From Pseudomonadota bacterium (lineage in GTDB: Bacteria; Pseudomonadota; Alphaproteobacteria; Rs-D84), in contig JAEXCU010000011.1 in the NCBI GenBank assembly GCA_023402015.1, forward strand, positions 5,275 to 69,274: a stretch of DNA of 64,000 nt, in the 5' to 3' direction. Both the position numbers and the translations under genes were made by a program. Positions 14,077-61,581 of the stretch are shown piece after piece (positions within the stretch are counted from its first letter, which is position 1; the number at the start of each line of letters is the position of its first letter). The notes below the pieces were generated by a model that did not search any database, was not told where the DNA came from, and saw only the letters and a list, made by a program, of their open reading frames with translations.

Positions 14077-14191
14077 GACTGATTTTATTTAATTATATTA
14101 CCACACTCTGTTTACTTTATACTATCCGCGGCGCAAAGTTCTGATTGGTATGGTTCGGTTCCACGAACCATACCATTATCAGATTGAACAA

Positions 14192-15328
14192 TTATCTTTG
14201 TACAACTTCCCATTCAAATGTGGTTCCGTTTGTTGTCAGAACACATTTTGCATCAACTGCTGAACATGCTGTCTGCGGTTTTGGAATGGCCTTGCCAGCC
14301 GTTGTGTTCGCGGTATCTGCCGTTGCCTGGGCCGCATCTGCTGCATCTTGGGCATTGTCTGCCGCGGTTTGTGCAGTTGCCGCCGCCGCTGTGTTGGATG
14401 CGATTGTTGCCGCATAACCATCATATGTTGTTACCTTGGCCGCTGTGATGCCGGAATCTGCCGCCGCCAATTGTGCCGTGGTCAGAGTATCCTGTTTGCC
14501 ATCCAAACCATCGCTCAATGCAGTTTTTGTTGCATATGTTGCCGCTGCATTAGTTTTTGTTTCCATATCTGCAATTGCGGTTTTGGTTGCATATGTTGCG
14601 GTGGCATTTGCTTTGGTTTCATATGTTGTTGCAACATCAGCACTCTTGGCATAATCGTCCAGGTCAGCTGCCTGTAATGCTGTATCTGCTTTGGCACCCT
14701 GGGCCGCGGTTGCGAAATCCGCCGCGTCATGTGTTACAACGTCGCCATATGTTGCAACTGTTGCCGCTGTGCCCTTGGCCGTTGCGTTAACTTCGTTGAT
14801 TGCAGCAACCGTGTTTCCTTTGGCTGTTGTTGTCAATGTGGACAAAGTACCAATGTTTGTTAATGCCGCCGATGCATTTGTGGATGCAGTGTTTGCGACA
14901 CCTTCTGTTGACTTGACAGCATATGCTGCGTCGGCCGCTGTTTTTGTCTGATACGCATCCAAATCTGCGGATTGCAATGCGCTGTCGGCTTTACCCAAAG
15001 ATGTTACGATATCGTCGGCCAATTTTGCCTTGGTTACGTTTTTATCTGTAATCTGTGCGGTTCCAACGGCATCCAATTCTGCCAATGCGCCCAAATCTGC
15101 TGTGTTTGCCTTGGCCTCCAAACCGGTTGTTAATTCAGTTTTGGTTGCAGCGTCTGTAATGCCATATCCAGCCAATGTTGTTGCTTTGTCGGCTTTGCCC
15201 GCGATGGTTGTATTTTGTGTTGTATTCTGCGTGTCAACGTATGCCTTGGACGCGATTTCCGCGTTCGCCGCACCAACACCGACCACGGTCAGTAAAGTTG
15301 CAAAGATACCTGCTGTTAATTTTTTCAT
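14192..15328 (-). CDS. Secreted Ala/Thr-rich fibre protein F2
   Basis: 378 aa with signal ...VGAANA/EIASKAYVDT, motif KADKATTLAGYGITDA, and C-terminal tip IPKPQTACSAVDAKCVLTTNGTTFEWEVV. Confidence 0.8.
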   Translation of the reverse strand: MKKLTAGIFATLLTVVGVGAANAEIASKAYVDTQNTTQNTTIAGKADKATTLAGYGITDAATKTELTTGLEAKANTADLGALAELDAVGTAQITDKNVTKAKLADDIVTSLGKADSALQSADLDAYQTKTAADAAYAVKSTEGVANTASTNASAALTNIGTLSTLTTTAKGNTVAAINEVNATAKGTAATVATYGDVVTHDAADFATAAQGAKADTALQAADLDDYAKSADVATTYETKANATATYATKTAIADMETKTNAAATYATKTALSDGLDGKQDTLTTAQLAAADSGITAAKVTTYDGYAATIASNTAAAATAQTAADNAQDAADAAQATADTANTTAGKAIPKPQTACSAVDAKCVLTTNGTTFEWEVVQR

Positions 15329-15373
15329 TGTTTTTTCCTTTCTTTCGTTTGGTTAGTTTTTTTTGTTAAATTC

Positions 15374-16309
15374 TTATTTTACCGGATTTGTTACCTCTAC
15401 CCATTCCAATGCGCCACTGGTGTTAACAGATAATACGCATGTTCCAGATGCAGCGGTGCAATTTGTGGACGGTTTTGGAATTGCATAATCTTCAATTTGT
15501 TCAACCGTTTCCGTTTTGGTGTATGCATCCGTAATGCCATATCCGGCCAAAGTTGTTGCTTTGTCTGCTTTGCCCGCAACGGTGGTTTCCATTGTGGTAA
15601 TTTTGTTGTTCATTTCTTCAAAATTACCTTCGGTCGCCATACCGTCTGTTTTGGTTTTCAATTCATTAACAGCCGCGACGATTGTCTGTGCAGTTGTTGT
15701 CAATGTACCCGTACCAACTGTACCCTGCAATGTGTCAATTTCACCTTCGGCGGTGGAAACGCGCGATGTCAACGCGGTTAAATCTGTTTGTGATGCCTTG
15801 GTTGCCAAACCATCAGTCGTGCTGTTAACTTTGCCGGCCAATGTATCAACATCACCCTGGGCGGCGGCGGCGGCATTTCCTGCGGCGACGGCTTTGTCAT
15901 CCGCGGCCTTGGCGGCGGCGGCGGCGTCTGCGACACCTTTGACCAATCCAGACGTTTCATCGCCAACAACTGTTTCCAACGCATCAACGTCTTTCTGGGC
16001 GTTTTCGGCCGCGTTTTTTGCAGCGGCGGCGTCTGTGGCGGCCTGGTCAGCCTTGGCGGAAATACCCGTTTCGGCATTATTTAACGTATCATCTAAATCT
16101 GTAATTTGTTTGGTTATGTTGGTGATATTTGTTGTAATACCTTCAACCGTTGACTGGGTGGCATACGTATCACCAACCGTTGTCATAATGGCTGTTTCTT
16201 TGTCATCAACATACTGTTTGCTGGCAATCTGTGTGGTCGCCGCGTTTGCACCGGCACTTAACATAATTGCAGCCATAGCACCCGAGAAAGCAATTTTTTT
16301 GTTTTTCAT
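15374..16309 (-). CDS. Secreted Ala/Thr-rich fibre protein F3
   Basis: 311 aa with signal ...SAGANA/ATTQIASKQYVDD, coiled-coil-like heptad-rich middle, KADKATTLAGYGITDAYTKTE, and tip IPKPSTNCTAASGTCVLSVNTSGALEWVEV. Confidence 0.8.
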   Translation of the reverse strand: MKNKKIAFSGAMAAIMLSAGANAATTQIASKQYVDDKETAIMTTVGDTYATQSTVEGITTNITNITKQITDLDDTLNNAETGISAKADQAATDAAAAKNAAENAQKDVDALETVVGDETSGLVKGVADAAAAAKAADDKAVAAGNAAAAAQGDVDTLAGKVNSTTDGLATKASQTDLTALTSRVSTAEGEIDTLQGTVGTGTLTTTAQTIVAAVNELKTKTDGMATEGNFEEMNNKITTMETTVAGKADKATTLAGYGITDAYTKTETVEQIEDYAIPKPSTNCTAASGTCVLSVNTSGALEWVEVTNPVK

Positions 16310-16389
16310 CTTTTACCTTATCCCCAGAATCAGAAATTGCAGGACCATAACTTGTTTCCAAATCCGTCCATAAATCACGTCATCCTTGT

Positions 16390-18354
16390 TTAATAAACCA
16401 CTTCAAACCATGCCTTTTCGCCATTTGAAACGGCCAGAACATGGTCCCCCGTACGTGGCGCATCAGACGTGCTTACGGCCTGGTCCGCCTTGGTCAAAGA
16501 TGCCTGAACATCTGTGGCCAGTTTTGTTTTTGCGATTGCCGCGTCATCGGCAACATCCGCATTTACAATTGCACTTTTGGTTGCCAAGGTACCCAGACTG
16601 GATTTATCTGCCTTGGTTGCCAATTGTTCATTGACATATGTTGTGTCGGCCTTGGTTGCCAGTACGGTTTCAACGCCTTCCAGGCCGCCAACGGTTATGT
16701 CTTCTAATTTTTTATCAATTTGTGTGGTGGTATACGCATCTGTAATACCATATCCGGCCAATGTGGTTGCCTTGTCCGCCTTGGCCGCAACCGCAGTTGC
16801 CGCATTATCAGCCGCCGTTTTGGCCGCAGTCGCATTTGTATTTGCAGTGGTTGCCAATTCTTTGGCCTCGCCCGCGGCAGTATTCGCAGCCGTTGCATTT
16901 GTATTCGCCGTTGTTGCCAGCGTCTTGGCCTCGCCCGCGGCAGTATTTGCCGCGTTCGCAGTAGAATTTGCAGCGCTGGCCGTGCTTAGCGCACTGGCCG
17001 CCGCCGTTGCGGCATCACCGGCCAAATCATTGATTTCGCCAATTTCTGTATTAATGGCATCAACGCGTCCGGCCAACGTATTAACCGTTGTGTTATCTGC
17101 CTTGGCCGCCAAATCTGTTGTTGTCGCATATCCCGCCAATTGTGATTTGTCTGCCTTTAATTCCAACGCCGAATTTACATCTGCGGTTTTTGCATATGCC
17201 TTTAACGCTTCGCCCATATCACCGGCAACAACGTCGGCAACTTTTTCATCAACCTGGCCCTTGGTGTAAACATCCGCCACATTGGCCTTGGTTTCCAATT
17301 CTGCCTTGGTCGCCAATGTCGTTAATTCGGTTTTGTCTGCTTTGCCCGCCAAATCGGTCGTGGTCGCCATATCCGCGATATCAACCTTGGTTGCATATCC
17401 GGTCAACGCCCCTGGCTGTAATGCCGTTTCCGCCAACGCCCCCTGGGCCGCGGTCGCATAATTCGCGGACGCCGTCGCAATCGCAGACGCAATCGCCGTA
17501 TTCATTGCAGCGGTCGTCGCATATGACGCGGCAATATCCGCCGTTTTTGCATATTCGCTTAAATCAATACTGGCCGCATCACCGGGTTCACCCTTGTCCC
17601 CTTTTTCACCCTTTTCACCCTGGGGACCCTGGGGACCTGTGATATCATTCTTAGAAATCAAAACATTCCATGTTGTATCGCCAACATAACGCCATAATAA
17701 ATTGTCATCGTTTGAACCGATTTCAACTTCACGACCGTCTTTGCCGGCAACAGTATTTAATTCATCTTTTAAATTTTCAACATCAACGTAAATTTCATTG
17801 GTTGTGTCATCAATAATAATGTACCCATCCGCAGTCGTGTTTAACAAATCCTGCTTTTCCAGCAATTTATCCGAAAACGCAATATCGGCATCTTGCAATT
17901 TATCAACATCACGACGAACCTGATCCACCTGGGATTGCAAATCTGCGGCCGTACCCGGATCCATAGAACCACCACCGGTTGAACCACTGGATGAATTGCC
18001 CGGCCCCTGGGGTTTAATAGAACTGCCACCACTGATTGATGTTCCGCCACCCAAATATTTTCCGATTGATAAACGCGGTGTTGTCGCCACGCGACCGGAC
18101 GTTGTTGTCCCAGCAGAAGGCTTGGCAACCGTTCCGGTTTTACCGGTTGTTGGCGTGACGCGCACAGAACCACCGCGCGCCGCAGCAATCGCATTAGAAC
18201 CAGACGATGTGTTTGCCGCCGCCGCGCTGGATGCGCTGTTATAGGTTCCACTGCCCCCCAGCGACCGAACCGACGAAGCACCATATGCACCAGATACGGT
18301 CGTGCACAGCACACAAACCATTGCCAACGTTGATATTTTCAGTTCGTTTTTCAT
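16390..18354 (-). CDS. Secreted fibre protein F4 with a collagen-like G-X-Y run
   Basis: 654 aa with a signal-like N-terminus and a Gly/Ser-rich linker. GPQGPQGEKGEKGDKGEPG, KADKATTLAGYGITDAYTTTQ, and long Ala/Thr repeats (ANTAAGEAK.LATTANTNATAA x2). Confidence 0.8.
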   Translation of the reverse strand: MKNELKISTLAMVCVLCTTVSGAYGASSVRSLGGSGTYNSASSAAAANTSSGSNAIAAARGGSVRVTPTTGKTGTVAKPSAGTTTSGRVATTPRLSIGKYLGGGTSISGGSSIKPQGPGNSSSGSTGGGSMDPGTAADLQSQVDQVRRDVDKLQDADIAFSDKLLEKQDLLNTTADGYIIIDDTTNEIYVDVENLKDELNTVAGKDGREVEIGSNDDNLLWRYVGDTTWNVLISKNDITGPQGPQGEKGEKGDKGEPGDAASIDLSEYAKTADIAASYATTAAMNTAIASAIATASANYATAAQGALAETALQPGALTGYATKVDIADMATTTDLAGKADKTELTTLATKAELETKANVADVYTKGQVDEKVADVVAGDMGEALKAYAKTADVNSALELKADKSQLAGYATTTDLAAKADNTTVNTLAGRVDAINTEIGEINDLAGDAATAAASALSTASAANSTANAANTAAGEAKTLATTANTNATAANTAAGEAKELATTANTNATAAKTAADNAATAVAAKADKATTLAGYGITDAYTTTQIDKKLEDITVGGLEGVETVLATKADTTYVNEQLATKADKSSLGTLATKSAIVNADVADDAAIAKTKLATDVQASLTKADQAVSTSDAPRTGDHVLAVSNGEKAWFEVVY

Positions 18355-23929: not shown

Positions 23930-24100
23930 AACCGTAAAATTTATATGATTTATACCAGAAAACCATGGAATTTTGATTAAATTCCCGGTGAATAATGTGC
24001 CTAATGCAAACCTCCGTTTATAATAGGTTTTATCGCCTGTAAAAAAGTCCTGGATTTCTGCATTTTTTTCTCCTCTTTTTTCGCCGAATCCAAACGGAGG
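23930..24100 (+). promoter_or_regulatory. P5 leader with an anti-SD/SD pairing
   Basis: CCTCCGTTT (24011-24019) is the exact reverse complement of AAACGGAGG (24092-24100), which contains the only strong SD before the P5 ORF. Confidence 0.5.
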
Positions 24101-24176
24101 ATTACTTTCTTCTTTTATTTTAATCGTATCGTTAACGTCAACATGCATTTTCCGACCTGCATTTGGATATGGATAC

Positions 24177-24713
24177 ATGTGTCAAATGGATGCAGATTGC
24201 GCAGCCGGCCAAAAATGCTGTAATGGTTTATGCTATCAAGAAGATTACGAAGGCGATTGTCCCAGTGGTGGTGGCGGTGGCGGCGGCAGTTGCGGCAGCA
24301 GCGGTTGTTATTGCGTAAATTCCAATTCATGTTGGGACGGGTATTATTGTAAACTTAATTCCGGTGGTACATCAGGCACATGCCAACCAATTCCCGATTG
24401 TTCCCAGGGTTGCACAAATTGCGATACAACCACCTGGACATCATACAGCACCGGATATCAATCACGCGTTTATGCCACATGTGATTGCACAACATGCAGC
24501 AAAAGAACACAATATCGTTGCGCGGCGGGTTATTATGGCACCCCCAGCACCGGAACCAGCGGTTGTACCAAATGCCCGTCATCCGGTACATCACGCGAAA
24601 CGTGTACCGCGGGCAGCACATCTGCAACATCATGTTATTTACCGGCCAGTGTATTTATCAGCGATGCGGCAGGTAAATATCAATTTACAACGAATTGTTT
24701 TTACACAAATTAA
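24177..24713 (+). CDS. Cys-rich protein (P5) with uncertain start (possibly N-terminally truncated or a pseudogene)
   Basis: C-terminus CTKCPSSGTSRETC...SCYLPASVFISDAAGKYQFTTNCFYTN. The frame is open upstream to 24027 and encodes a signal-like LLSSFILIVSLTSTCIFRPAFG after GGAGG, but has no ATG/GTG/TTG before 24177. Confidence 0.6.
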   Translation: MCQMDADCAAGQKCCNGLCYQEDYEGDCPSGGGGGGGSCGSSGCYCVNSNSCWDGYYCKLNSGGTSGTCQPIPDCSQGCTNCDTTTWTSYSTGYQSRVYATCDCTTCSKRTQYRCAAGYYGTPSTGTSGCTKCPSSGTSRETCTAGSTSATSCYLPASVFISDAAGKYQFTTNCFYTN

Positions 24714-32898: not shown

Positions 32899-33495
32899 TT
32901 AATCATAAACATAATAACATTTATCTGAGTATTCACCGGCGCCGGTATCATCGTTGAAATTTCCGGTCAAATAGCATTTATTCAGCGAAAAGTTATCACC
33001 ATAATCACTTTTCCCGCCATTTGGACATTGGGAATATATCATTTGCACAACCAACGCCTGTTGCGCATCATTTTGCACGCCCACGCCCGCCCAGAAATAA
33101 TTTGCATCCGGAAATTCGCATACCCCATGTTCCATACAACGACGCGCCGCAATCAGCGCAATCTGATGCAATTGTTCCTGCAAATGTTCGGCACTCATCC
33201 CCGTATTCGCGTCATAATCGTAATCTTGGCCCATCCGCCATCCCAAATCGGCCAAATCTTCACACATGTATGGTGATTCTGTGCACATTGCGGCAATGGC
33301 GGCATTAGATCGGTTATCGCAGAATGTTTTTGCACTGGCCGCATCCAGTTTATTATAAAAATATTTGCTGGCGTTGCATGATATGTATGCCATGCAGGCC
33401 TGGCATTTTGCAGTTGGCGTTGTCGCAGCATATGCATCTGTACCCAACACGAAAACCATAATACCCACAAGCAAACGTCCGTTAAGATTCGGCAA
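32899..33495 (-). CDS. Secreted Cys-rich protein (P7)
   Basis: 198 aa with a TTG start in the ORF track and signal-like LLVGIMVFVLGTDAYA. N-domain has CQACMAYISC...C...Cx5C. C-terminus QCPNGGKSDYGDNFSLNKCYLTGNFNDDTGAGEYSDKCYYVYD. Confidence 0.75.
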   Translation of the reverse strand: MPNLNGRLLVGIMVFVLGTDAYAATTPTAKCQACMAYISCNASKYFYNKLDAASAKTFCDNRSNAAIAAMCTESPYMCEDLADLGWRMGQDYDYDANTGMSAEHLQEQLHQIALIAARRCMEHGVCEFPDANYFWAGVGVQNDAQQALVVQMIYSQCPNGGKSDYGDNFSLNKCYLTGNFNDDTGAGEYSDKCYYVYD

Positions 33496-47536: not shown

Positions 47537-47806
47537 TTAATGAATACCCACGCGGAACTGGTCGCCCCAACCGGCAACAACCTGGCCGCCAACGGTGCAT
47601 TGGATATCTTCGAAGCCATTTGCAACCTGGTTCTTTTTTATTACATTACTGGTGATTAAACCGCCCGCAGTTCCCAATACAACACCTGCAACTGAATCGG
47701 ATAATAAACGCGTACTGTTGAATTTACCTTCCTCGGTCTTCCATACCGTGCGTTCAAAATCTGATTTCTGCGTGTTTATTTTCTTTATTGTTTCTTTTAT
47801 GCGATT
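47537..47806. repeat. Left arm of the about 270-bp inverted repeat (3' ends of G1 and G2)
   Basis: The reverse complement matches 50258-50525 at roughly 90% by eye, and most differences are synonymous. Confidence 0.85.
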
Positions 47807-49018
47807 ACGCGAATTCGTTAACAATAACTGGCTGTTGGCAGATTCGCGTTTTTCACGTGCCGCAGACGATTCTATACACGCCGTTCCCGCCGAATTCATT
47901 TCTTTGTCAGGGTCCGTACAATAACATGTTTTGGTCGCATTATTCCATGCCGCACCGTATATCTGGGTGCATGCCGCAATTGCTGGATTAATTTGGCAGA
48001 TTTTATTTAACCAAACATGCTGGGGGTTGGTGCACAGGCAACTTTTGGTCGTTGCATCCCAATACGCACCAGAATTACGACTGGCCGTTTCTTCGCAATC
48101 GCGTTGTAATGCCGCAGCATCCGTTATTTCGCAATGGTCGCCAACGCGTTTGTAATTTACATCATCCGGGCATTGGCAAATATCATTACGCGATACCAGG
48201 TTTTTGGCCGCATCACATTCGCATTTATTGTTTTTCCATGTACCCCCTGATTGTTGACATGCCAATTGACGCTGTTGATTCTGTTTTTGTTGACGCCGGC
48301 GGTCTTCGTCGTCAATAACAGACTGTTTTTTATTGCAACGTTTTGCGCCACTGTCGTATTCATAATCACCGCTGATGCATTCACAAGATTTTCCATCCGC
48401 TTTCGGTTTTAAATGTTTAGCACTGCTGCATACGCAAGAAGAACCATTCCATGTCCCACCAGACGATTCACATTGGCTTTGGCGATTATCCTCAATACAT
48501 TCAGAACTATTCTTTTTATCTTCTGCATTTGGCATATATCCATCATTACATTTTATATACACACACGCTGTATTTCCGGCCTTTAATACCGTATCATCAC
48601 CAGAAACATATCCGATTGTTTTGTTTCCATTATCCAAACTGTATGATTTATAGGAATGGGGAAATGTTGCATCCGGATCTCCTATTTGAATATCACTGTC
48701 AGGACAAAAAATCGGTGGATTAAAATCTTTCCAATAATCATTTTTCCATGTTTCTATACACTGTTTAAGATTTGTGATTCTGCCTTGGGGATCAACCTGT
48801 CCGATAACAGCGCCGCCACCACACTGTTTATCACCAGCATAAGAATCATTACAATAATAACATTGCGAACCATAACCATTCGCGCTGGCATTCACAGAAT
48901 CAGAACCACCGCAACTGAACAATTGACAATTAGCAGCGGCATTTGCCCCAGACATAAATCCAAAAAATCCGCAAAACAATGCTGAAATTACTAAATATTT
49001 TTTCATATTCTTCTCCAT
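47537..49018 (-). CDS. Cys-rich surface protein G1 with repeated C..SGGTW...C.C units and a C-terminal Gly-zipper hydrophobic segment
   Basis: 493 aa with signal MKKYLVISALFCGFFGFMSGANA (ATG 49006 is the likelier start, with GGAG 6 nt upstream). About 40 Cys. The C-terminal 89 aa are nearly identical to G2. Confidence 0.78.
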   Translation of the reverse strand: MEKNMKKYLVISALFCGFFGFMSGANAAANCQLFSCGGSDSVNASANGYGSQCYYCNDSYAGDKQCGGGAVIGQVDPQGRITNLKQCIETWKNDYWKDFNPPIFCPDSDIQIGDPDATFPHSYKSYSLDNGNKTIGYVSGDDTVLKAGNTACVYIKCNDGYMPNAEDKKNSSECIEDNRQSQCESSGGTWNGSSCVCSSAKHLKPKADGKSCECISGDYEYDSGAKRCNKKQSVIDDEDRRRQQKQNQQRQLACQQSGGTWKNNKCECDAAKNLVSRNDICQCPDDVNYKRVGDHCEITDAAALQRDCEETASRNSGAYWDATTKSCLCTNPQHVWLNKICQINPAIAACTQIYGAAWNNATKTCYCTDPDKEMNSAGTACIESSAAREKRESANSQLLLTNSRNRIKETIKKINTQKSDFERTVWKTEEGKFNSTRLLSDSVAGVVLGTAGGLITSNVIKKNQVANGFEDIQCTVGGQVVAGWGDQFRVGIH

Positions 49019-49169: not shown

Positions 49170-50525
49170 ATGAGATTTAAGCCAATTTTTAATATAATCT
49201 GTTTGTCTGTTATGACGTTCACGCCAATCCTGGGCCATGGTGGTACCAACGATGATATAACCAATGCCTGTTATGCCACAAACCATTGTGGCGCGCGCAG
49301 CAACCTAAAAACGTTGGCTGCGGTTCTGGGCGCAACCCAGGGCGCAAAAATTGGATTTTTTACCCCCATATCCGGCGGAACAATTATGGGGGGATACGCA
49401 GGATATGTTATCGGGGATAATTTGGGCGGCAAATTATCCACAGCATATTCGGCCAATGAATACATATATTTTGACGATAAAACATGTCTGGAATGCGACA
49501 CATATCAAATGGGCGAACATTACGAATGCCCCAACGGAACAATTGTTTCAAATGGCAGTCATGTATTAAAATGCCATACAACATCCGGTGGCGATTACTG
49601 GCAAGAATATACATTGTCCCCATGTTCAAACAGTCCGATTAAAAGCAAAGATACCACAGGCACATATGCAGAAATCCGTGCAACGGTGAATAAACCAGTT
49701 GCCAGCGGTGTTAATGTATACAGCGGGGACGCATGCCTGTATATAACAAAGTCCAAGTCCACCTCAAACGACAACAATCCTAAAAAAGAAACACCTGTGA
49801 AACAAAATTCAACCACCAGTTTGCAAAAATGTCTGGACCAGCGCACAACTGACGAAGGCCGGGCGTGCTGTTATGTACCAAATTCGGTCGCAACCTGGAA
49901 TGGAAACAAATGCGTTTGTACCGATAATACCCAGGTTTTTGACATTACTACCCACAGTTGTATAACCGCGTCTGCGGACATCACGGTAATTGTGCAAACG
50001 TCTGCATATGTGTGCAGTGTAAATGATTTAACACAATTGTATATGTGGCGGGATGAATATTTAAATAACAATGCAATTGTTAATCTGATTGATAAAATCC
50101 TGTTATTTTGCACCACGGGCGAAAACCGTACAGGCACAGATTACAATAATATGATTGCGCAACTGCGTGCGTTAATTTCCCAGGAAAACGCAATAGCGCA
50201 AAAACTGCAAGAATCTGCGGCGCAATCACGCATAGTCCTGCAAAATAAATCCGCCATGCGAATCAGTGAAACAATAAAGAAAATAAACACGCAGAAATCA
50301 GATTTTGAACGCACGGTATGGAAGACCGAAGATGGCAAGTTCAATAGTACACGTTTGCTGTCCGATTCTGTTGCGGGTGTTGTATTGGGAACTGCGGGCG
50401 GTTTAATCACCAGTAATGTAATAAAAAAGAACCAGGTTGCGAATGGCTTTGAAGATATCCAATGCACCGTTGGTGGCCAGGTTGTTGCCGGTTGGGGCGA
50501 TCAGTTCCGCGTGGGAATAAATTAA
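49170..50525 (+). CDS. Cys-rich surface protein G2, divergent paralog of G1
   Basis: 451 aa with signal-like MRFKPIFNIICLSVMTFTPILG and a Gly-rich segment. C-terminal RISETIKKINTQKSDFERTVWKTEDGKFNSTRLLSDSVAGVVLGTAGGLITSNVIKKNQVANGFEDIQCTVGGQVVAGWGDQFRVGIN. Confidence 0.78.
   Translation: MRFKPIFNIICLSVMTFTPILGHGGTNDDITNACYATNHCGARSNLKTLAAVLGATQGAKIGFFTPISGGTIMGGYAGYVIGDNLGGKLSTAYSANEYIYFDDKTCLECDTYQMGEHYECPNGTIVSNGSHVLKCHTTSGGDYWQEYTLSPCSNSPIKSKDTTGTYAEIRATVNKPVASGVNVYSGDACLYITKSKSTSNDNNPKKETPVKQNSTTSLQKCLDQRTTDEGRACCYVPNSVATWNGNKCVCTDNTQVFDITTHSCITASADITVIVQTSAYVCSVNDLTQLYMWRDEYLNNNAIVNLIDKILLFCTTGENRTGTDYNNMIAQLRALISQENAIAQKLQESAAQSRIVLQNKSAMRISETIKKINTQKSDFERTVWKTEDGKFNSTRLLSDSVAGVVLGTAGGLITSNVIKKNQVANGFEDIQCTVGGQVVAGWGDQFRVGIN
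50258..50525. repeat. Right arm of the inverted repeat
   Basis: See 47537-47806. Confidence 0.85.
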
Positions 50526-54160: not shown

Positions 54161-54235
54161 CCTGATGTATTCTGGGTGTATTATACCATAAATGGGCGGT
54201 AAAATAAAGAATAAATACTGGCCGATTTAATAAAA

Positions 54236-54256
54236 AACCGCGCATAATGCGCGGTT
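54236..54256. terminator. plsY terminator
   Basis: AACCGCGCAT-AA-TGCGCGGTT. Confidence 0.6.
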
Positions 54257-54258
54257 GA

Positions 54259-54846
54259 TTATTTTTTCCATTTCCAAACTATCTTGGATTCGGTCCCACC
54301 CACCAGGCGACCAATATTTTCACGATGCCGCCACATGCACAGCAATGCGATTGCCAAAAATGCCAATCCGATTTTCCACCCTATAACAAAACCCAACACT
54401 GGCATCAGACAGAAAACCACCACCGCCCCCAGGGATGAATATCCCGATGACAATGCAACAATCAGCCATTCAATCCCGCATATAATAAATGACAGCGGAC
54501 TGACCGCCAACAATACGCCAAACAAAGACGAAATTCCTTTGCCCCCATGAAAACGCAGCCACACCGGATAACAATGCCCAACAATCGCGGCAAAACCACA
54601 CCATGCACCAAATGCATCACCAGCAATCCAATTTCCGATAAAAACGGCCGCAATGGCCTTGGCCATGTCCAGCAACCAAACAGCCGCCGCCATACGCAGG
54701 CCACCGACACGCATAACATTTGTTGCACCGATGTTTCCACTGCCCACCTGGCGCAGGTCGCCCTTGCCCATTGCACGTGTCAGCAAAAGGCCCATTGGAA
54801 TGGACCCCAACAGATAAGAAATAATAATTGCGATTGCGTATATCAT
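54259..54846 (-). CDS. plsY: Glycerol-3-phosphate acyltransferase PlsY
   Basis: 195 aa, multi-TM, with GSGNIGATNV. Confidence 0.92.
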   Translation of the reverse strand: MIYAIAIIISYLLGSIPMGLLLTRAMGKGDLRQVGSGNIGATNVMRVGGLRMAAAVWLLDMAKAIAAVFIGNWIAGDAFGAWCGFAAIVGHCYPVWLRFHGGKGISSLFGVLLAVSPLSFIICGIEWLIVALSSGYSSLGAVVVFCLMPVLGFVIGWKIGLAFLAIALLCMWRHRENIGRLVGGTESKIVWKWKK

Positions 54847-54919
54847 TTTATTTTTCCTTGATTTTATGTTTGTTTTCTATAAAATAACAAAAAACATGAC
54901 TAAATAAAAGGAAAATAAA

Positions 54920-55180
54920 GTGGCAAATCACAAGTCATCAGAAAAAAGAATTTTGGTAACAGCCAAGAAAAACGCTGTTAATACCGCACGTCGCAGCGCG
55001 GTCAAAACCGAAACCAAAAAGGCGTTAAAGGCAATTGAATCCGGCGACAAAGCCGCCGCAACCGCCGCCGCACGCAATGCAGAAAGCAAAATTATGAAAT
55101 CTGCCGGCAAAGTTATGCCGAAAAAACGCGCCGCACGCAAGGTTTCCCGTCTGACCAAGAAAGTTGCGAAAATGGCGTAA
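54920..55180 (+). CDS. rpsT: 30S ribosomal protein S20
   Basis: GTG start. MANHKSSEKRILVTAKKNAVNTARRS, highly basic, 86 aa. Confidence 0.92.
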   Translation: MANHKSSEKRILVTAKKNAVNTARRSAVKTETKKALKAIESGDKAAATAAARNAESKIMKSAGKVMPKKRAARKVSRLTKKVAKMA

Positions 55181-55200
55181 TTCTTTTTGATAAGATATTA

Positions 55201-55227
55201 AAAAATCCGCCGATTGGCGGATTTTTT
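55201..55227. terminator. rpsT terminator (copy 1 of an identical 25-mer)
   Basis: AAAAATCCGCCGATTGGCGGATTTTTT. The same 25 nt recur at 55841-55865. Confidence 0.7.
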
Positions 55228-55279
55228 ATTTATGTACAGAAAAATATAAAACCGGCAAATGCCGGTTTCATATGTTGAA

Positions 55280-55762
55280 CTATTCTTTGTCTGATTTCAC
55301 ATGTTCATACTGTACCAGCGCAATTCCCACATCACCCGGAATTACATAAAAACCAAATTTCATTCCATCGGTTATCATATGCGTTGAAATTGGCGTTGCA
55401 CCGGCGGCAACAACTTTATCATGCATGGCATCATAATCTTTGACCGTCAGATATGCGGTTGTGCCAACGGGACCGCGACTGCCATCGGGCAATTTTGGCG
55501 TTTCCATAACACCGGCAAAGGGCCATACCTGGCCTGGGGCCTTGATAATTATATAATCCTGGCCGGTTGGCGTTTTATGCGCAGCCGTTGTCTTGATACC
55601 CAAATTATCATTTAAAAATTCAACCGTTGCGGTGGGGTTATTTGAATAAATATCAATCCAAGACAACGCGCCGGTTGTTTTCATTGGATTTGTCTTTAAG
55701 AACAATGCAACGCAACCAATTAATAAAACCAATAAAATATAAAAACCTATTTTGTAAAACAT
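55280..55762 (-). CDS. Membrane-anchored VOC/glyoxalase-fold protein
   Basis: 160 aa with an N-terminal TM helix, followed by a region resembling glyoxalase/bleomycin-resistance family repeats. Confidence 0.6.
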   Translation of the reverse strand: MFYKIGFYILLVLLIGCVALFLKTNPMKTTGALSWIDIYSNNPTATVEFLNDNLGIKTTAAHKTPTGQDYIIIKAPGQVWPFAGVMETPKLPDGSRGPVGTTAYLTVKDYDAMHDKVVAAGATPISTHMITDGMKFGFYVIPGDVGIALVQYEHVKSDKE

Positions 55763-55840
55763 AATTTCTCCTTTTGAATCTGTTTGACATAACTGATTAT
55801 ATCACAGTTTTATTGATTTATCTGGAATAGTTTCATAAAT

Positions 55841-55867
55841 AAAAATCCGCCGATTGGCGGATTTTTA
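55841..55867. terminator. Terminator after the giant Cys-rich gene (copy 2 of an identical 25-mer)
   Basis: AAAAATCCGCCGATTGGCGGATTTTTA. Confidence 0.65.
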
Positions 55868-58513
55868 TTGAATCGCATGATATGTTGTACCACCAAAATT
55901 TACATTTATCGCATTTTGGGAATTTCCGGCGGCCAAACTGCCATAGCAAACCTGGGATGCATAACCAACACCCAATGCGTGGTCGGTTTGTTTTGCTGAA
56001 TACAGCGGAACTGTAATTCCATTACCCATTTTTAATTGTGTTATTCCGGCCCTACACAATTGGGCGCAGACATTTTGCGATGTCAGATTGTATCCAGAAT
56101 CACATACCCACGGGCAACTGTTGGATGCCGCGTTGGACGTATATGATGAATTGGCAATTTTGTTTGTGCATGCCACACATGCGGATGCGCCACCCGCACT
56201 GTATTTTCCAACCGCACATTCTGTGCATGTTGGATTTGCGGTTTTATTACCCGCTGCGCCATATTTGGCATTGCAATTTACATTATATGTACACGCCCGA
56301 TATGCCGAACCAGAATAATATTCATGGGCATTGACCACCGTGGTGGTACCGCCTGAAATTGATTTGGCCGTGCAACTGATATAACAATCACCAATTTCAT
56401 CGCGTCCATTGTCAGAACCAGATGCCGTCGGTGGGCACGTTTTGCGTGAATTATCCCCCGGGCAATAATATCCACTTTCGCATGCGGTGCATGTGCCATT
56501 GGCATTTTTATAAAAGCCAGGGTTGCATGTTATTGTTATATCGCAGGTGGATTCCGCCGCACTGCACGAACCACCGTAATATTCTGTGCCAGATGTGGAC
56601 GACGAACCGTGGGTGCATGTTGCATTTGCGGGACATGTCTGTTGTGTGCATGCGCGTGTGCATGATTTCCAACATGCCCCAATGCCCCCGGTGGTGCCAT
56701 TGGCACTGTTGGGATACGTCGCCGGGCATCCGGCGCATGCCCCAGACGACAAATAATATCCGTCATTACAACTGGCGGCGACGCACGATGTGCTGCACAC
56801 GCCATAACTGCTGCACCCGGTGCACGATGCACCCGCGGACGAACACGCACTGTTGGTATAATTTCCGTTGCATGTTTTTGTGCCCGCGGGACAAGACACG
56901 CTGTATGCATTTGCAACACTGTTTGACGGCGTGCATGACGTGGTGGATGACCGGTTGGCAACACTGGTGCAAACAGTATTGCATGAACATCCCGATGCGG
57001 TCGCAGTGTATCCGGTTTCGCAACTGTATGTCCATGCACCATATGACCAATCACCACAACTGGCCGATCCGGTGCATGCGGACGCAGACGTACTGCCCGC
57101 GGGACTGGTGGTGCGATAACATGTGCGCGATTTGCTGCGACTGCGCGTGCCACCCGTGGTGGATTCACTATCCGTGCCGGTTTCGGTAAATGAAACGGAT
57201 GAACATGCGGCGCATGAACTGCCCGATTTATAGTAATTCGCATTACATTGCCATGGACAATTATCTTCAACCGCATACATGGATGACGGTGTACTATAAC
57301 TGGTGTATGTGGCGTTGGCCGGTGCATTGGTACATGCCGTACAAATGTTGTACCAATCGTTAAAATTCAACGGGTCAGACGCATAATATCCCGTACGACA
57401 CCAATCATAATGGGTATAATTGTTTCCACTGGGGCCGTTATAACATGTGGTCTGATTTAAATATTGTATTCTGGTACTGTCGCTAAGGTACCAGTTGCAA
57501 ATACAATCTGACGAACTGACTGCATGTTCATAATCAGACCAACTGCCACTGGACAAACTGACAATGCTTTCCGGTGTTGGCGAACCGGATTTTACCGTGC
57601 TGGCGCATGTTGCGCGGTTTGTGCCACCGGTACAATAATTACCACTGCCACAGGCGGCGCAAGATGTATTGCCATTTGCGCTGGATCCGTAATATCCAGC
57701 ATTACATGACCATGGGCATGAATTGGCCGTCGCAGAACCAACGTATTCAGAATTTGCAGGCTTGTTGCTGCAACTGTTCAGGCCATAACCATTGCTTAAA
57801 TTCCCCTCGGCAACACTGCTGAATCCGGGGCAATAACTGCCCGACGGGCATGAACCACATGCCGAACCATTCCAATATGTTCCGGCCGGACACGTTATAT
57901 ATCGCGTGCCACCGGTGCATGTGCCCCACGAGGAACAACCACTGCACGATGCGCCGGCCGACGAACAATCACCATTTGTGTAATTACCCGCACATATCTG
58001 ATATGCGCCGGAATAAGAACACGTTCCCCCTGATACAGAACATGACCGCGTACACGATTGGGTGGACGCGCGATTTGCGACACTGGTGCATGGCGTAGTG
58101 CAAACGCATGAATTATTGCTGTTGGTGTATCCACTGTTGCATGATGAAACATAACATGTTCCGGTGGATGTACGCCCCCATGATGAACACCCCGTACATG
58201 ACCCGGTACAGTTATCGCCACCGGTGTAATAACCATTACAGGTGTTGGTATATGACCGCGTCCCGGCGCCGTTTGTTATACCGCAAGATTCGCTGCCTGA
58301 TGATGTACTGGACGAATTGGGCGTGCTGGTACACGTATTTGTGCAACATACCGGGGCGTTCGTTCCACCCGCACATGTACAACCCGACGGACACGACGAA
58401 CATGAATTACCGGCCGTCGTTCCGTTCAAATAGTACCCCGCATTACACGATGTATATTTCTTATACGTAGGGCAAGAATACCCAGCCGCACCAGCAACGG
58501 AAACACTTAACAA
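55865..58513 (-). CDS. Giant Cys-repeat surface protein (furin-like / ephrin-receptor-like / VSP-like CxxC repeats)
   Basis: 882 aa, roughly 13% Cys, very Ser/Thr/Gly/Asn-rich. About 10 units of C[ND].G[YF]Y...C..C..G.YC. Recurring blocks ANS.Y....A.NSCPW.C[ND].GY and NYTN..CSSAGASC.GCSS.G. The frame stays open to 58555 (RFFFSLTFLLLSVSVAGAAG, signal-like) but has no canonical start there. Confidence 0.8.
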   Translation of the reverse strand: MLSVSVAGAAGYSCPTYKKYTSCNAGYYLNGTTAGNSCSSCPSGCTCAGGTNAPVCCTNTCTSTPNSSSTSSGSESCGITNGAGTRSYTNTCNGYYTGGDNCTGSCTGCSSWGRTSTGTCYVSSCNSGYTNSNNSCVCTTPCTSVANRASTQSCTRSCSVSGGTCSYSGAYQICAGNYTNGDCSSAGASCSGCSSWGTCTGGTRYITCPAGTYWNGSACGSCPSGSYCPGFSSVAEGNLSNGYGLNSCSNKPANSEYVGSATANSCPWSCNAGYYGSSANGNTSCAACGSGNYCTGGTNRATCASTVKSGSPTPESIVSLSSGSWSDYEHAVSSSDCICNWYLSDSTRIQYLNQTTCYNGPSGNNYTHYDWCRTGYYASDPLNFNDWYNICTACTNAPANATYTSYSTPSSMYAVEDNCPWQCNANYYKSGSSCAACSSVSFTETGTDSESTTGGTRSRSKSRTCYRTTSPAGSTSASACTGSASCGDWSYGAWTYSCETGYTATASGCSCNTVCTSVANRSSTTSCTPSNSVANAYSVSCPAGTKTCNGNYTNSACSSAGASCTGCSSYGVCSTSCVAASCNDGYYLSSGACAGCPATYPNSANGTTGGIGACWKSCTRACTQQTCPANATCTHGSSSTSGTEYYGGSCSAAESTCDITITCNPGFYKNANGTCTACESGYYCPGDNSRKTCPPTASGSDNGRDEIGDCYISCTAKSISGGTTTVVNAHEYYSGSAYRACTYNVNCNAKYGAAGNKTANPTCTECAVGKYSAGGASACVACTNKIANSSYTSNAASNSCPWVCDSGYNLTSQNVCAQLCRAGITQLKMGNGITVPLYSAKQTDHALGVGYASQVCYGSLAAGNSQNAINVNFGGTTYHAIQ

Positions 58514-58667
58514 CAGAAACGTTAAAGAGAAAAAAAAGCGGTCGTTTAAATTAGGCTATCACAGGGGGAACAAATGACGCAGAAATTGGGGATTTTTTGT
58601 AAACCAAATATTACGAATATAATCCACCATTTGGATTAGGCCAGGCATTTTGCCCTACATGCCAGGC

Positions 58668-58696
58668 ATTATATAGAATTTTAACACATTTGACAA
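58668..58696 (-). promoter_or_regulatory. Near-consensus sigma70-type promoter for the giant Cys-repeat gene
   Basis: Minus strand reads TTGTCA-17 nt-TATAAT. The plus-strand 10-mer GCCAGGCATT occurs twice (58640-58649, 58661-58670), overlapping or following the -10. Confidence 0.6.
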
Positions 58697-58745
58697 GATT
58701 AAATTTTCGGAATAGATACGTACCAAAACTGCGGTTTTCCGGTGC

Positions 58746-58795
58746 AAAAAACCGCCCAGATTCCTAATTTGTGGAAAAACTGGGCGGTTTTTATA
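58746..58795 (-). terminator. Terminator after the secretin gene
   Basis: ACCGCCCAG-20 nt-CTGGGCGGT with a T-run on the minus strand. Confidence 0.6.
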
Positions 58796-58820
58796 TTTTT
58801 TATGCAAAATAATGCATTTT

Positions 58821-60449
58821 TTAATTCAACGGCGCGCCCCAATGTTGCTGGATACTGCGTTCTGCATCCATTGGGCTTACCAATACCTGGGGCGTCAAAA
58901 TCACGACCAGAACATCACGCTGGGCCGATGTTTCGCGCGAACCTGACAACGCCATAAAGTCCGGGTCGCCCAAACCATAACGTGTATCGGAATTGCTTTG
59001 CTTTTCAAATCCGGATACAACCAGCATCTGGCCCGATTCCATAATTACTTCCTGCATGAATGAACGTTCTTCAACCTCGGGCAATTGCAGGGTTACTTCG
59101 CCAATTGTCTGGGTTGACATTTTCAGCAATTCACGCACCGACATTCTGAACAACAGCAATATTTTGCCATTTTCCAAAACATTGGGCAGCAACTGCATTG
59201 AAAATCCGGTTTCCAAATCGTCCTGGTCAACGGTGGATGATTCAACGGTTGTAAAGTTGCGGGATTCAAATCGTTTGATGTACCCGGTTGTACGCGTGTT
59301 GTTTACCGGCGCAACGCGGTTGCTGCGCGTGGTGACACCAACGTTTGTAACCAATGATACTTTGCCCTGCTTGGCCAATGCCTGAATTAATGCATTACTG
59401 CCTGCGGCACCTGACAACGAACCATTTTGAATTTGATCCTGGGTGTATGCACCGGCAACTTCCTGGCCATTTTCCATGTGGGTTGCACCCGTCATTGCTG
59501 ATACAGTATTGGACAAAACCGCAATGTTCATGGAACTGGCCTCGGTTGATGCCAAATTATTTTTCGGGTTTGCAACCAAATTTAATCCTGATGCAGAATT
59601 AATCGCCGCGGCCAAATTCAAACCGAACGCAGAATCATTTGCGATTGAAACCTGTAATACTTTGACGTCGATTGTCACCAACTGCGACAAACGTTTGTTC
59701 TGGCGCGCAATGTATTCACCCACGCGTGATAAAACAGACGGTGGCGCGGTAACGGTAATTGTTCCCAAACTGCGCGAAACGGTAAAGTCCGCATTGTCGG
59801 CCTTGCCAATAATGCCAGAAATGGCGTTTTCAACCTCGTCCCATTCTTTTAATGTAGATTCCAAAGACACCTGATTTCCGTCATCTGTCTGGACAGCCGT
59901 CTGATATGAAATTTCCGTCCCCAGTGCATATAATGTATATGTCTTGGTTTCTGTTTCATAAAAAACAATCGCGTTTTTATCATAATACCACAGCAAGTCT
60001 AAATCCGTCGCCACCTGGGACAACAGACCGGACAATTTGCCGGTGTACGCAATGTTCATCAATTTTTTTAATTTTTCAGAATTTACCTGGCTGTCAATTT
60101 TCACAGGTATGCCAGTTATGGAATTAATGTCATTTGCCAAAACCTGCAAACTGACCGGTTCGTTCAGCAAAATTGTAATACCAGTATCTGTTTCAAACCG
60201 CGCAGGCAAATTATTTCTGTGTTCCAAAATTGTGGATTTATTCCCCAGCCATACACCCTCAGACATGGAAACGGTATCACCACTGGCCACCTTGGCACGT
60301 GGATTTTTGGCCATTTCAAACGCATCGTATGCGTTGATAAAATCCTGGTCCACGGACGCCGCAACCTTTGCAGATTCCTTGGTGGTGCACCCTGTCAGCA
60401 TCGCCGTCAGCACAGTGCACATAACAAAAAAATTAATTGGTTTTGACAT
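58821..60449 (-). CDS. Secretin-family outer-membrane lipoprotein, PilN (type IVb pilus)/BfpB-like
   Basis: 542 aa with lipobox LTGC. C-terminal secretin-like block GFSMQLLPNVLENGKILLLF...GQMLVVSGFEK...GLGDPDFMALSGSRETSAQRDVLVVILTPQVL. Confidence 0.7.
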   Translation of the reverse strand: MSKPINFFVMCTVLTAMLTGCTTKESAKVAASVDQDFINAYDAFEMAKNPRAKVASGDTVSMSEGVWLGNKSTILEHRNNLPARFETDTGITILLNEPVSLQVLANDINSITGIPVKIDSQVNSEKLKKLMNIAYTGKLSGLLSQVATDLDLLWYYDKNAIVFYETETKTYTLYALGTEISYQTAVQTDDGNQVSLESTLKEWDEVENAISGIIGKADNADFTVSRSLGTITVTAPPSVLSRVGEYIARQNKRLSQLVTIDVKVLQVSIANDSAFGLNLAAAINSASGLNLVANPKNNLASTEASSMNIAVLSNTVSAMTGATHMENGQEVAGAYTQDQIQNGSLSGAAGSNALIQALAKQGKVSLVTNVGVTTRSNRVAPVNNTRTTGYIKRFESRNFTTVESSTVDQDDLETGFSMQLLPNVLENGKILLLFRMSVRELLKMSTQTIGEVTLQLPEVEERSFMQEVIMESGQMLVVSGFEKQSNSDTRYGLGDPDFMALSGSRETSAQRDVLVVILTPQVLVSPMDAERSIQQHWGAPLN

Positions 60450-60482: not shown

Positions 60483-61397
60483 TTATTCTTCGGCCGTAGA
60501 AATTACCAGAACACGATTTCCCTTGTAAAATTTGGCATATGGCACCGGTGTTGCGCGACCAAAATTGCGCACCAATGCAGACGCAACATCAACAAAGCGT
60601 CCCTTGAAGACAGCGCTTGCCTCAATCGGGTATTCACGCGATGTCGCCCATACCAAATCCCATCCTTCTTTATCACACCAGTTTTGTAAAACTTCGTGCA
60701 GGGATTGACCACTGGCGACAACCCACGAACGAACCTGATCCATCAGCATCGGTGCCGGTTCGGCATCTGCGGAAATATCCACAGAAATTTCTTCTTCGCT
60801 AACTTCGCCATTTGCATTTTCTGTCTGGGTCATACCCATTTTTGCCGCGAACGCCGCATATCCATCGGCGTATTTACCGCAATTGCCACGACCACTGCGC
60901 GACACAGTTAAAACATCACCACCGTCATCTTCCAATACTTCGCGATGCAGCAACGGCATTTCCGAACCGTTATTGCATTCATCGTCAAATCCGACAGGGA
61001 TTTGCGTACCATGCAACATGTTTGCCCCGCCCGACCATCCACCGAAATCGCCACGTGCACCCAAATTGAAATTATTTTCAACAACCAAATCCGCCCCGAT
61101 TTTAGATACAATGCGAATATTGTCAGAATCTTTATTTTTAGAACACGCCCCGTCTTCACATGCAACAACAACGTCGGCATCAGATCCAGTTAACGGCCAC
61201 ACCGGCACCGGCGCAGGCTGGGCAACGGTTTCTTGAACCTGATACGACGTGTCGTATTCAACATATTGATTTTCGTCAATTGTTTTGTCCTGGGTGTAAA
61301 AAACCTCTGACGTAACAACCTGGGGCAAATTTTGCGCGGCAAAACAATACCCTGCGGCAGTTGCAAACATGGCGACAATAAGAATCTTGCGGAACAT
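60483..61397 (-). CDS. PilL/TcpQ-domain protein
   Basis: Start MFRKILIVAMFATAAGYCFA at 61397 with RBS AAGGAAG. C-terminal SGQSLHEVLQNWCDKEGWDLVWATSREYPIEASAVFKGRFVDVASALV resembles the TcpQ/PilL domain. Confidence 0.6.
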   Translation of the reverse strand: MFRKILIVAMFATAAGYCFAAQNLPQVVTSEVFYTQDKTIDENQYVEYDTSYQVQETVAQPAPVPVWPLTGSDADVVVACEDGACSKNKDSDNIRIVSKIGADLVVENNFNLGARGDFGGWSGGANMLHGTQIPVGFDDECNNGSEMPLLHREVLEDDGGDVLTVSRSGRGNCGKYADGYAAFAAKMGMTQTENANGEVSEEEISVDISADAEPAPMLMDQVRSWVVASGQSLHEVLQNWCDKEGWDLVWATSREYPIEASAVFKGRFVDVASALVRNFGRATPVPYAKFYKGNRVLVISTAEE

Positions 61398-61581
61398 AAA
61401 AACTTCCTTTCCTGAATGTTTTTCGTATTTATTATGCTTATTATAACAATTTGACCGAATCTGTGCAAGATTAAAACGCACATAAATCAACCACGATTTG
61501 AAATATCACCAAGATAAAATCGCACGAATCGGGAAAAAATGTTATACTGTTTTCATCAGTTTAAATTTTCAGGAGTGGTAT

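Follow-up and report, generated by a model that had tools for sequence, protein, structure and literature searches.

The 64,000-nucleotide stretch of contig JAEXCU010000011.1 (assembly GCA_023402015.1) analysed here, which we call the window, comes from the uncultured alphaproteobacterium Candidatus Enterousia, order Rs-D84. Enterousia genomes of this order measure 0.75-1.0 Mb and lack the tricarboxylic acid cycle, respiration and standard transporters; these reduced-genome organisms are presumed symbionts or parasites, and their membrane proteins are uncharacterised. On its minus strand the window carries a gene for a cysteine-rich modular protein, for whose family no description was found in the literature. 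The frame of the open reading frame (ORF) stays open upstream as far as 58555, the end coordinate in the original prediction, a note made from the sequence alone. Identical copies of the 882-codon ORF lie in three other assemblies. The features of the gene are the following.

58668..58696, minus: sigma-70-like promoter TTGTCA-17-TATAAT, 11/12 positions matching, the best site in the 7 kb scanned
58558..58698, minus: promoter plus 5' leader element, conserved among family members across species
58556..58561, minus: TGA TAG; in the codon alignment the TAG stands at the codon that is the TTG/GTG/ATG start in relatives
58514..58555, minus: in-frame extension PNLNDRFFFSLTFL, n-region and first half of the hydrophobic region (h-region) of the family signal peptide, with no start codon before it
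55865..58513, minus: ORF of the Cys-rich modular protein, TTG start, 882 codons plus TAA
58391..58486, minus: conserved N-terminal module AGYSCPTYKKYTSCNAGYYLNGTTAGNSCSSC, the predicted mature N-terminus (N-terminal hidden Markov model (HMM), E=2e-17)
57905..58333, minus: SVANR modules 1 and 2, residues 61-203, from self-alignment; AlphaFold2 (AF2) confidence low
57674..57775, minus: PANS..NSCPW.CNAGYY block 1, residues 247-280
57194..57607, minus: central region, residues 303-440, conserved among orthologues and containing the second PANS..NCPW.C block
56789..57025, minus: SVANR module 3, residues 497-575, 56% identical to module 2 (92.8 bits, E=6e-28)
56426..56527, minus: unit CNPGFYKNANGTCTACESGYYCPGDNSRKTCPPT, the sole Pfam match, TNFR_ELAPOR1_6th (PF23091), sub-threshold
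56072-56173, minus: PANS..NSCPW.C block 3, from self-alignment
55868..56113, minus: C-terminal domain, residues 801-882, with an all-beta core of ~60 residues

This is a real, selectively maintained gene, and it belongs to an undescribed, lineage-specific multigene family of Ca. Enterousia. The most likely reading of its product is a variable exported adhesin or surface-coat protein.

Modular body and C-terminal domain

The protein is rich in Ser (16.8%), Thr (12.4%), Gly (11.6%), Cys (10.3%, 91 of 882 residues), Ala (10.2%), Asn (8.5%) and Tyr (7.1%). The original prediction recognised the 882-residue Cys-rich ORF correctly and put Cys too high, at about 13%. All four repeat units that it quoted are present (residues 23-47, 208-230, 270-297 and 663-687), as are the blocks it listed as duplicated: ANS..NSCPW.C occurs three times, C.SVANR.ST.SCT twice and NYTN..CSSAGASC.GCSS.G twice. 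It went too far in describing the chain as almost entirely CxxC/C.G[YF]Y repeats; the repeats are there, but they amount to just 12 CxxC and 7 C..G[YF][YF] motifs. Two regions, the central one (303-440) and the C-terminal domain (801-882), lie outside the repeats and together make up about 220 residues.

The internal repeat map that had been proposed was made by self-comparison and gave repeats far above chance. The real protein yielded 144 off-diagonal high-scoring segment pairs, against 15-38 in ten composition-preserving shuffles (shuffle maximum 39 bits), and the top self-match paired residues 124-200 with 497-574 (56% identity, 92.8 bits, E=6e-28). Four module types recur: SVANR (three copies), PANS..NSCPW.C (three copies), C..G[YF]Y..C..C..G.YC units, and a CWKSCTRACTQQTCPANATC module with one copy in the window protein and two to three in relatives. 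No DNA-level tandem repeats of note occur in the ORF. The central region has no Pfam match; its residues C337, G375, Y376, C391 and C394 are near-invariant, and the predicted local distance difference test (pLDDT) score there is mostly ~60-95. As predicted, no enzymatic domain appeared in Pfam, NCBIfam and PHROGs scans. Searches with the protein or its C-terminal domain returned no match in NCBIfam, in PHROGs or among PDB sequences.

The original prediction likened the repeats to those of furin, ephrin receptors and protozoan variant-specific surface proteins (VSPs). The Furin-like (PF00757) and Giardia VSP (PF03302) Pfam models did not match the window protein at E<=0.1, nor did Ephrin_rec_like (PF07699). 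What stands, weakly, is a likeness to ephrin-receptor and TNFR repeats: PF23091 reached 27.4 bits at residues 663-696 (E=3.2e-6), below its gathering score of 33.2, and among 46 relatives PF23091 matched 9 and Ephrin_rec_like 7 (best E 1.7e-7). When the protein was shuffled ten times, none of the copies matched Pfam at E<=0.1, so the PF23091 match is not purely compositional, contrary to a possibility that the original prediction had raised. The family profile matched ELAPOR1 only among PDB sequences (E=4.9e-4). In the AF2 model of the whole chain pLDDT averages 69, and residues 200-510, 580-700 and 770-882 are confident. The Foldseek top list of this model comprised mastigoneme, ELAPOR1, the cysteine-rich domain (CRD) of EphA4/EphA2, 4-1BB, DcR3 and OPG, at E>=2e-3 and with low TM scores; no match had E<=1e-3. 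Three weak, concordant lines (Pfam, the family profile against PDB, and Foldseek) point to the CRD fold class. The "eukaryote-style" likeness is probably a real, remote resemblance to the fold class of TNFR/Eph CRDs and not family membership.

Window units of the form C..G[YF]Y....C..C..G.YC.G are similar to those in the ELAPOR1 ectodomain (PDB 9vql/9vqm) and in Ephrin_rec_like. Unlike the TNFR/Eph CRD proteins, the window protein is bacterial and, by its N-terminus, predicted to be Sec-exported; it has no receptor or kinase parts, and most of its chain (SVANR modules, central region and C-terminal domain) matches nothing. Like Giardia VSPs and ciliate surface antigens, it belongs to a big multigene family with ~10-12% Cys and CxxC motifs, in which the C-terminal end is conserved while the body varies. 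However, Giardia VSPs end in a transmembrane helix and CRGKA, whereas the window protein ends in a soluble beta domain without a hydrophobic segment. The likeness is one of design, not of descent.

The consensus of the C-terminal domain is C.SGYN.T..N.C.Q.C..G[IV]T.L..G.G...PLYS...T.PA[IL]N[VI]......CYG.L......[IL]N[VI]...G.TYH. and its AF2 model is small and all-beta (pLDDT 94.7, predicted TM score (pTM) 0.82). In a search of 1.84 billion proteins, a profile of the domain matched 549 cluster representatives (50% identity), 366 of them at E<=1e-10, in chains of up to 2921 residues; with few exceptions among the matches listed, the domain sits at the very end of the chain. Neither fold (best E ~1) nor sequence linked it to a PDB entry, and Pfam gave no match. 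The BFVD fold search returned three uncharacterised gut-phage proteins (TM ~0.5, E=0.07-0.45), a likeness between models that is suggestive only. Homology to the C-terminal domain was also found in a second C-terminal type, DCGR.L.VG..K.YLRS.KKT.PSL.V......YGNM....L.[IV]..G.TY.V.DDS (hhalign 97.4%, E=1e-11), and in the N-terminal 60 residues of a ~325-residue Gly-rich protein (hhalign 96%, E=2e-9).

The tail of the small-P proteins, a family also represented in the window, was considered as a further relative and rejected (hhalign probability 0.7%). This agrees with the original prediction, which had found that the Cys-rich protein shares the repeat vocabulary of the small-P family and lacks its C-terminal tail; the shared vocabulary was seen here as well. 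Like the C-terminal domain of type IX secretion (T9SS) cargo, the domain is a beta domain of ~60-80 residues that ends many diverse secreted proteins of one lineage. It has no sequence or fold match to the T9SS domain and, unlike a pure sorting signal, is also found N-terminally in the Gly-rich proteins. T9SS is not known from Alphaproteobacteria.

Family, selection and start codon

A search of 5.8 billion proteins returned 82 homologues. Those with a source name are all proteins of gut "Alphaproteobacteria bacterium" metagenome-assembled genomes (MAGs), with two to three locus tags per MAG. Members range from ~520 to ~1540 residues, and up to 2921 residues in the C-terminal-domain search. They share a mature N-terminal module, AGY[ST]CP.YKKYTSC..GYY[LM]NGT..GN.C..C, which follows a signal-like N-terminus with an AxA-type end; the window protein likewise carries a predicted Sec-type signal and then a "AGYSCPTYKKYTSC..GYYLNGT" module. 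It falls within the family by all three marks that define it: the N-terminal HMM (E=2e-17), the C-terminal domain HMM (E=1e-37) and the leader (nhmmer, 116 bits). Of the 46 relatives, four have extracellular binding domains of the Flg_new type (E=6e-33) and three of the F5/8 type C type.

Another lineage-specific envelope family is represented in the window by two divergent paralogues (47537-49018, minus, and 49170-50525, plus; 451-493 residues), whose N-terminal halves are rich in Cys and are followed by a coiled-coil-like middle and almost identical C-termini (..AGVVLGTAGGLITSNVIKKNQVANGFEDIQCTVGGQVVAGWGDQFRVGI); it also occurs at loci L065 and L039.

The ORF is intact in three strain lineages, and disruption in related strains, which the original prediction had considered, was not seen. 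Compared with a 96%-identical strain (L003), it shows 87.5 synonymous and 26.5 non-synonymous differences (dS 0.156, dN/dS 0.085), no indels, and 25 amino-acid changes of which none affects a Cys. Comparison with a third lineage (L170) gave 149 synonymous and 57 non-synonymous differences (dS 0.29, dN/dS 0.10), again with no indel and with 91 Cys. In the L170 comparison the neighbouring genes have dS of 0.13-0.18 (lower in p160 and rpsT) and much lower dN. Divergence from L003 jumps at the 5' end of the ORF, from 0.7% in pilN and the spacer to 4.3% in the ORF. Between species, the syntenic Cys-rich orthologues are only 30-47% identical and vary from 517 to 1227 residues, whereas the adjacent PilN is 87-92% identical, SufB 81-85% and DnaA 77-81%. 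Low dN/dS together with low orthologue identity is, at the level of sequence, the signature of a functional protein with a fast-diversifying modular body. Beside this, the intergenic spacers in 54161-58820 differ between the window and L170 by 0-4% mismatches, far below the dS of 0.13-0.29 of the flanking genes.

The most surprising feature of the gene is the recurrence of start-proximal stop codons in intact ORFs. The N-terminal signal is the sole hydrophobic stretch of the window protein, and it shows an Arg in the n-region, the h-region and a VAGA|AGY site. The in-frame extension PNLNDRFFFSLTFL aligns with MPNLNDR.. (L169), MPNKKDHFF.. (L167), MPKKIHHFLFS.. (L008) and MPNLNVGF.. (the paralogue P0020, which begins MPNLN). 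In the codon alignment of 14 distinct family genes the start codon lies four to five codons 5' of [DH][RH]FFFS; it is TTG in L005, L006, L008, L039 and L167, GTG in L169 and ATG in L024, and in L008 an upstream Shine-Dalgarno sequence and ATG yield a longer N-region. The signal peptides of relatives are complete, but in the window gene a TAG preceded by TGA occupies the start codon, and no ATG, GTG or TTG lies upstream of the h-region. The next in-frame starts, CTG 58516 and TTG 58513, would leave only ~10 signal residues. The TAG is common to all three strain lineages of the window species.

Comparable lesions occur in other species: TGG at the start position in L007, TAA at codon 4 in L023, L065 and L068, and TAA at codon 3 in L168. 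All six of these genes, the window gene included, keep intact ORFs over 528-1204 codons, and no internally interrupted family member was found among the loci examined. A longer allele is absent from the 90% identity cluster, where lengths are 854-882 only, and a scan of metagenome DNA with the signal-region pattern gave 77 matches that were all chance and included no family member. Rescue of the start by frameshifting or transcriptional slippage at the T8 or C5 tract was rejected because the three upstream frames end in a stop with no start; read-through does not work as a rescue either. A recoded genetic code was also rejected, as 21 confident genes of normal length stop at TAA (19), TGA (1) and TAG (1). 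Because TAG replaces the start and yet the gene is kept under selection, translation must either wait for a switch or start by an unusual or inefficient route. Initiation could be non-canonical and of low level, the gene could be in an OFF state that recombination or mutation reverses, or a mechanism of a new kind could be at work.

A second secreted-protein gene of the window lacks a canonical start. In the small-P gene at 24027-24713 (plus) the signal frame SPNPNGGLLSSFILIVSL... has TCG where its paralogue at 32899-33495 has TTG (MPNLNGRLLVG...), and its first ATG, at 24177, lies past the signal peptide.

The gene has its own near-consensus promoter, as the original prediction had proposed (TTGTCA-17-TATAAT, 11/12 positions), and its -35 and -10 boxes are conserved in the family. 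The leader of ~140 nt is kept across species and paralogous loci as CTTGTAAAA-17-CATATAAT, followed by GCATGYAGGGCA..TGCCTAATCCAAAGGGTGGATTA..AAAATCCCCRATTTCTGC..CCCCC and then the start. By nhmmer it scores 72-122 bits before every family member examined (116 bits in the window), and promoter and leader together were found at L005-L009, L023, L024, L039, L065, L068 and L167-L169. Scores are lower before other secreted-protein genes in the slot between pilN and rpsT described below, including the fibre-like gene and the Cys-rich gene of L050, and the leader is partially present before small-P and "WGD.F.VGI" genes; a second copy of its core lies at 24083-24103 (plus) in the window. No Rfam family matched it at gathering score, and RNAalifold gave only a weak 5-bp helix (-0.66 kcal/mol), with no convincing conserved RNA structure. 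The shared leader may mark a regulon of surface-protein genes. An invertible promoter was rejected, there being no flanking inverted repeats other than the terminator hairpin.

The slot between pilN and rpsT

As the original prediction stated, the Cys-rich gene lies directly 3' of pilL-pilN-like genes on the same strand. The neighbouring features are the following.

60483..61490, minus: PilL-like protein with a TcpQ domain (PF10671, 60.1 bits)
58821..60449, minus: PilN-type lipoprotein secretin (Pfam Secretin PF00263, 52.5 bits, above cut-off), lipobox LTGC visible
58741..58792, minus: terminator-like hairpin and T-run 3' of pilN (repeat I1, 16-nt arms, 94% complementary); a separate scan placed an overlapping hairpin here
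55280..55762, minus: 160-residue ORF, 102 nt 3' of the Cys-rich gene, with a lipobox-like LIGC and a weak glyoxalase-fold match

The TIGR02520 model gave PilN 236.7 bits, below its cut-off of 287.65, and the PilN protein is identical on four metagenome contigs. The 160-residue ORF has no terminator before it and a strong one after it (55273..55244), and is possibly co-transcribed with the Cys-rich gene. It is present only in strains of the same species, and we therefore count it as part of the variable slot.

A scan of species-representative genomes with a PilN profile found 307 relatives, and the best 80 of these 307 were used to compare the locus. These 80 are 86-90% identical in PilN, belong to MAGs labelled Candidatus Enterousia or uncultured Alphaproteobacteria/Rickettsiales, and derive from human, ruminant, horse, chicken and mouse gut; they include a circular MAG of 958,618 bp. 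The conserved gene order is SufB - x - PilL(TcpQ) - PilN - [slot] - rpsT - PlsY - p283 - DprA - DnaA. The slot is empty (<600 bp) in 27 species loci, holds a family member in 6 and other genes in 35; in the remaining 12 the contig ends within 1.5 kb 3' of pilN, which leaves 68 informative loci. These 12 contig ends suggest assembly breaks at repeated or variable sequence. Other slot contents are small-P genes, an autotransporter (PF03797, E=1e-31; L063 and L083), larger insertions, and a signal-peptide protein matching phage head/tail fibre PHROGs (E=3e-21) that is followed by a Gly-rich protein. This pair of a fibre-like gene and a ~325-residue Gly-rich gene recurs, at 8301-9910 of L007 and just 3' of pilN in L051, L068 and L078, and its fibre-like protein ends ..GDDARF..PPTG.VF.WFN. 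Four paralogues of the Cys-rich gene (P0014, P0019, P0017 and P0030) sit in other genomic contexts, where no secretin gene is close by.

Neither the 64-kb window nor the 10-kb flanks of the 80 loci showed a pilin, ATPase or platform gene, and no type IV pili have been reported for Rs-D84 genomes. Within these stretches the pilL-pilN pair is an orphan. PilN is nevertheless 86-92% identical across more than 80 Enterousia species, above SufB, DnaA and PlsY of the same loci, which implies an important role for the secretin.

Two further stretches of the window were noted. Four consecutive ORFs of 311-654 residues at 12994-18354 (minus) have no significant Pfam match, a raised GC content (0.47-0.49) and a strongly negative AT skew (-0.2 to -0.3). 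A phage-integrase-like gene with Arm DNA-binding and SAM-like domains lies amid housekeeping genes at 8094-9143 (minus).

Function and alternative readings

We put at roughly 60% the probability that the gene encodes an exported, disulfide-rich, elongated modular protein, one member of a rapidly diversifying Ca. Enterousia family. On this proposal, transcription would be driven by the conserved promoter and leader of the family. A Sec-type signal peptide, cut after the AxA-like site just before AGY[ST]CP, would carry the chain to the periplasm, where the 91 cysteines would form the disulfides of stacked TNFR/ephrin-receptor-like modules. The variable middle would face outwards and meet host or partner cells, as an adhesin or a surface coat. 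The N-terminal module and the C-terminal beta domain would serve family-wide functions such as sorting, anchoring or assembly.

Several observations weigh against this proposal. The signal peptide has no canonical start codon in front of it, and neither the TAG nor TTG 58513 is preceded by a Shine-Dalgarno sequence, which most housekeeping genes here possess. The SVANR modules are modelled with low AF2 confidence, every CRD similarity falls under curated or significance thresholds, and no route of translocation across the outer membrane was identified. A role in adhesion is suggested by architecture and host lifestyle only.

The original prediction took the protein for a candidate cargo of the adjacent PilL-PilN secretin, or for its partner at the surface. 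On such a reading, the secretin would move it folded across the outer membrane in the manner of TcpF and CofJ. In the tcp and cof operons the gene of a signal-peptide protein lies next to genes for a type IVb secretin and a TcpQ-domain protein, and the arrangement at the locus (TcpC/TcpQ, PilN/PilL class) is similar; at least nine further species loci show it (L005/L033, L006, L007, L023, L024, L039, L065 and L068). A folded disulfide-rich protein would need a wide outer-membrane channel, the unusual conservation of PilN in the lineage fits such a role, and the conserved mature N-terminus and C-terminal domain could be recognition signals. The genes of TcpF and CofJ, however, lie inside complete pilus operons with pilins and ATPase, whereas pilL-pilN is here an orphan, the gene has its own promoter behind a terminator-like hairpin, and no sequence similarity to TcpF or CofJ exists. 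Adjacency is not conserved either: the slot is empty in 27 of the 68 informative loci and holds a family member in only 6. It also accommodates small-P genes, phage-fibre-like genes and an autotransporter, which needs no secretin, while paralogues elsewhere do without a neighbouring secretin; and the secretin may have other roles, such as DNA uptake. We therefore regard a dedicated pairing as rather doubtful, since the variable contents and the separate transcription signals make adjacency a trait of a hypervariable surface-gene slot. Given its strong conservation, the orphan secretin might nonetheless serve the organism's many disulfide-rich proteins as a general exit. At L168 (134-2769) a Slam gene (PF04575, type XI secretion) and a lipobox-bearing 425-residue protein lie directly upstream of the paralogue P0025. 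Slam was rejected as the exporter: it is paired with the 425-residue protein (TbpB-like by eye only, with no Pfam match) and is absent from the other loci examined. If the protein instead stayed in the periplasm or cell envelope, for instance as a structural or disulfide-buffering component that is neither surface-exposed nor adhesive, the lack of any recognisable beta-barrel, lipobox, transmembrane segment or known sorting signal would be explained. This we consider quite unlikely, given fast divergence and module shuffling beside conserved neighbours, which are typical of exposed proteins, relatives with discoidin and InlB-B-repeat domains, and the use of the same slot and leader by autotransporter and fibre-like proteins.

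The start-codon lesions raise the question of whether the gene is expressed at all. A recently inactivated pseudogene would have lost its canonical start as this gene has, with TGA directly upstream and, at the next TTG, no Shine-Dalgarno sequence and ~10 signal residues left. Such a dead gene is hard to reconcile with the selection data and is very unlikely. The lesion is common to three lineages that differ by 114-206 substitutions at dN/dS 0.085-0.10, with no stop, indel or Cys change, whereas by our estimate neutrality would turn ~4-5% of substitutions into stops; other species with a similar lesion likewise keep intact ORFs. A translationally silent copy, either phase-OFF or a donor, to be activated by a switch in the start region or by recombination through its conserved ends, would fit such intact ORFs with recurrent start-proximal lesions. 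The conserved 5' and 3' ends around a variable middle, the jump in divergence at the 5' end of the ORF and the 12 contigs of 80 that break close to pilN also fit it. Anaplasma msp2/p44, Neisseria pilE/pilS and Borrelia vls likewise have conserved ends, a hypervariable centre and several copies without a usable start. In those systems recombination is known, whereas here it is a candidate process only: no expression site or truncated cassettes were seen, and the gene has a full promoter, unlike classical silent cassettes, and a full-length ORF. Moreover, no ON allele (TTG) occurs in four same-species sequences, no invertible-promoter repeats were found, and no homopolymer change (T8 and C5 tracts, three frames) restores the start. 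We hold a silent copy to be rather unlikely.

The exported, disulfide-rich modular protein remains our preferred reading. A bolder extension, clearly unlikely as it stands, would be an Enterousia surface-variation system. In this system, TNFR-like rods would share a promoter and leader and a terminal beta domain for display, possibly via PilLN, and copies silenced or throttled by lesions in the first four codons would be switched on by recombination, reversion or non-canonical initiation. If true, a genome of ~0.9 Mb would possess a new form of contingency control.

Ca. Enterousia and Rs-D84, with genomes below 1 Mb, are widespread in human and animal guts and presumably live at the expense of other cells. 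The Cys-rich family described here, the small-P family and other Cys-rich families fill a sizeable share of the tiny Enterousia genome. At present the family described here is the strongest candidate for the Enterousia interaction surface, because it evolves several-fold faster than its neighbours and its regulatory leader is conserved. Its C-terminal beta domain, the shared leader and the start-proximal stops under purifying selection deserve curation or experiment, and the stops pose a concrete puzzle of translation initiation or phase control in reduced genomes.

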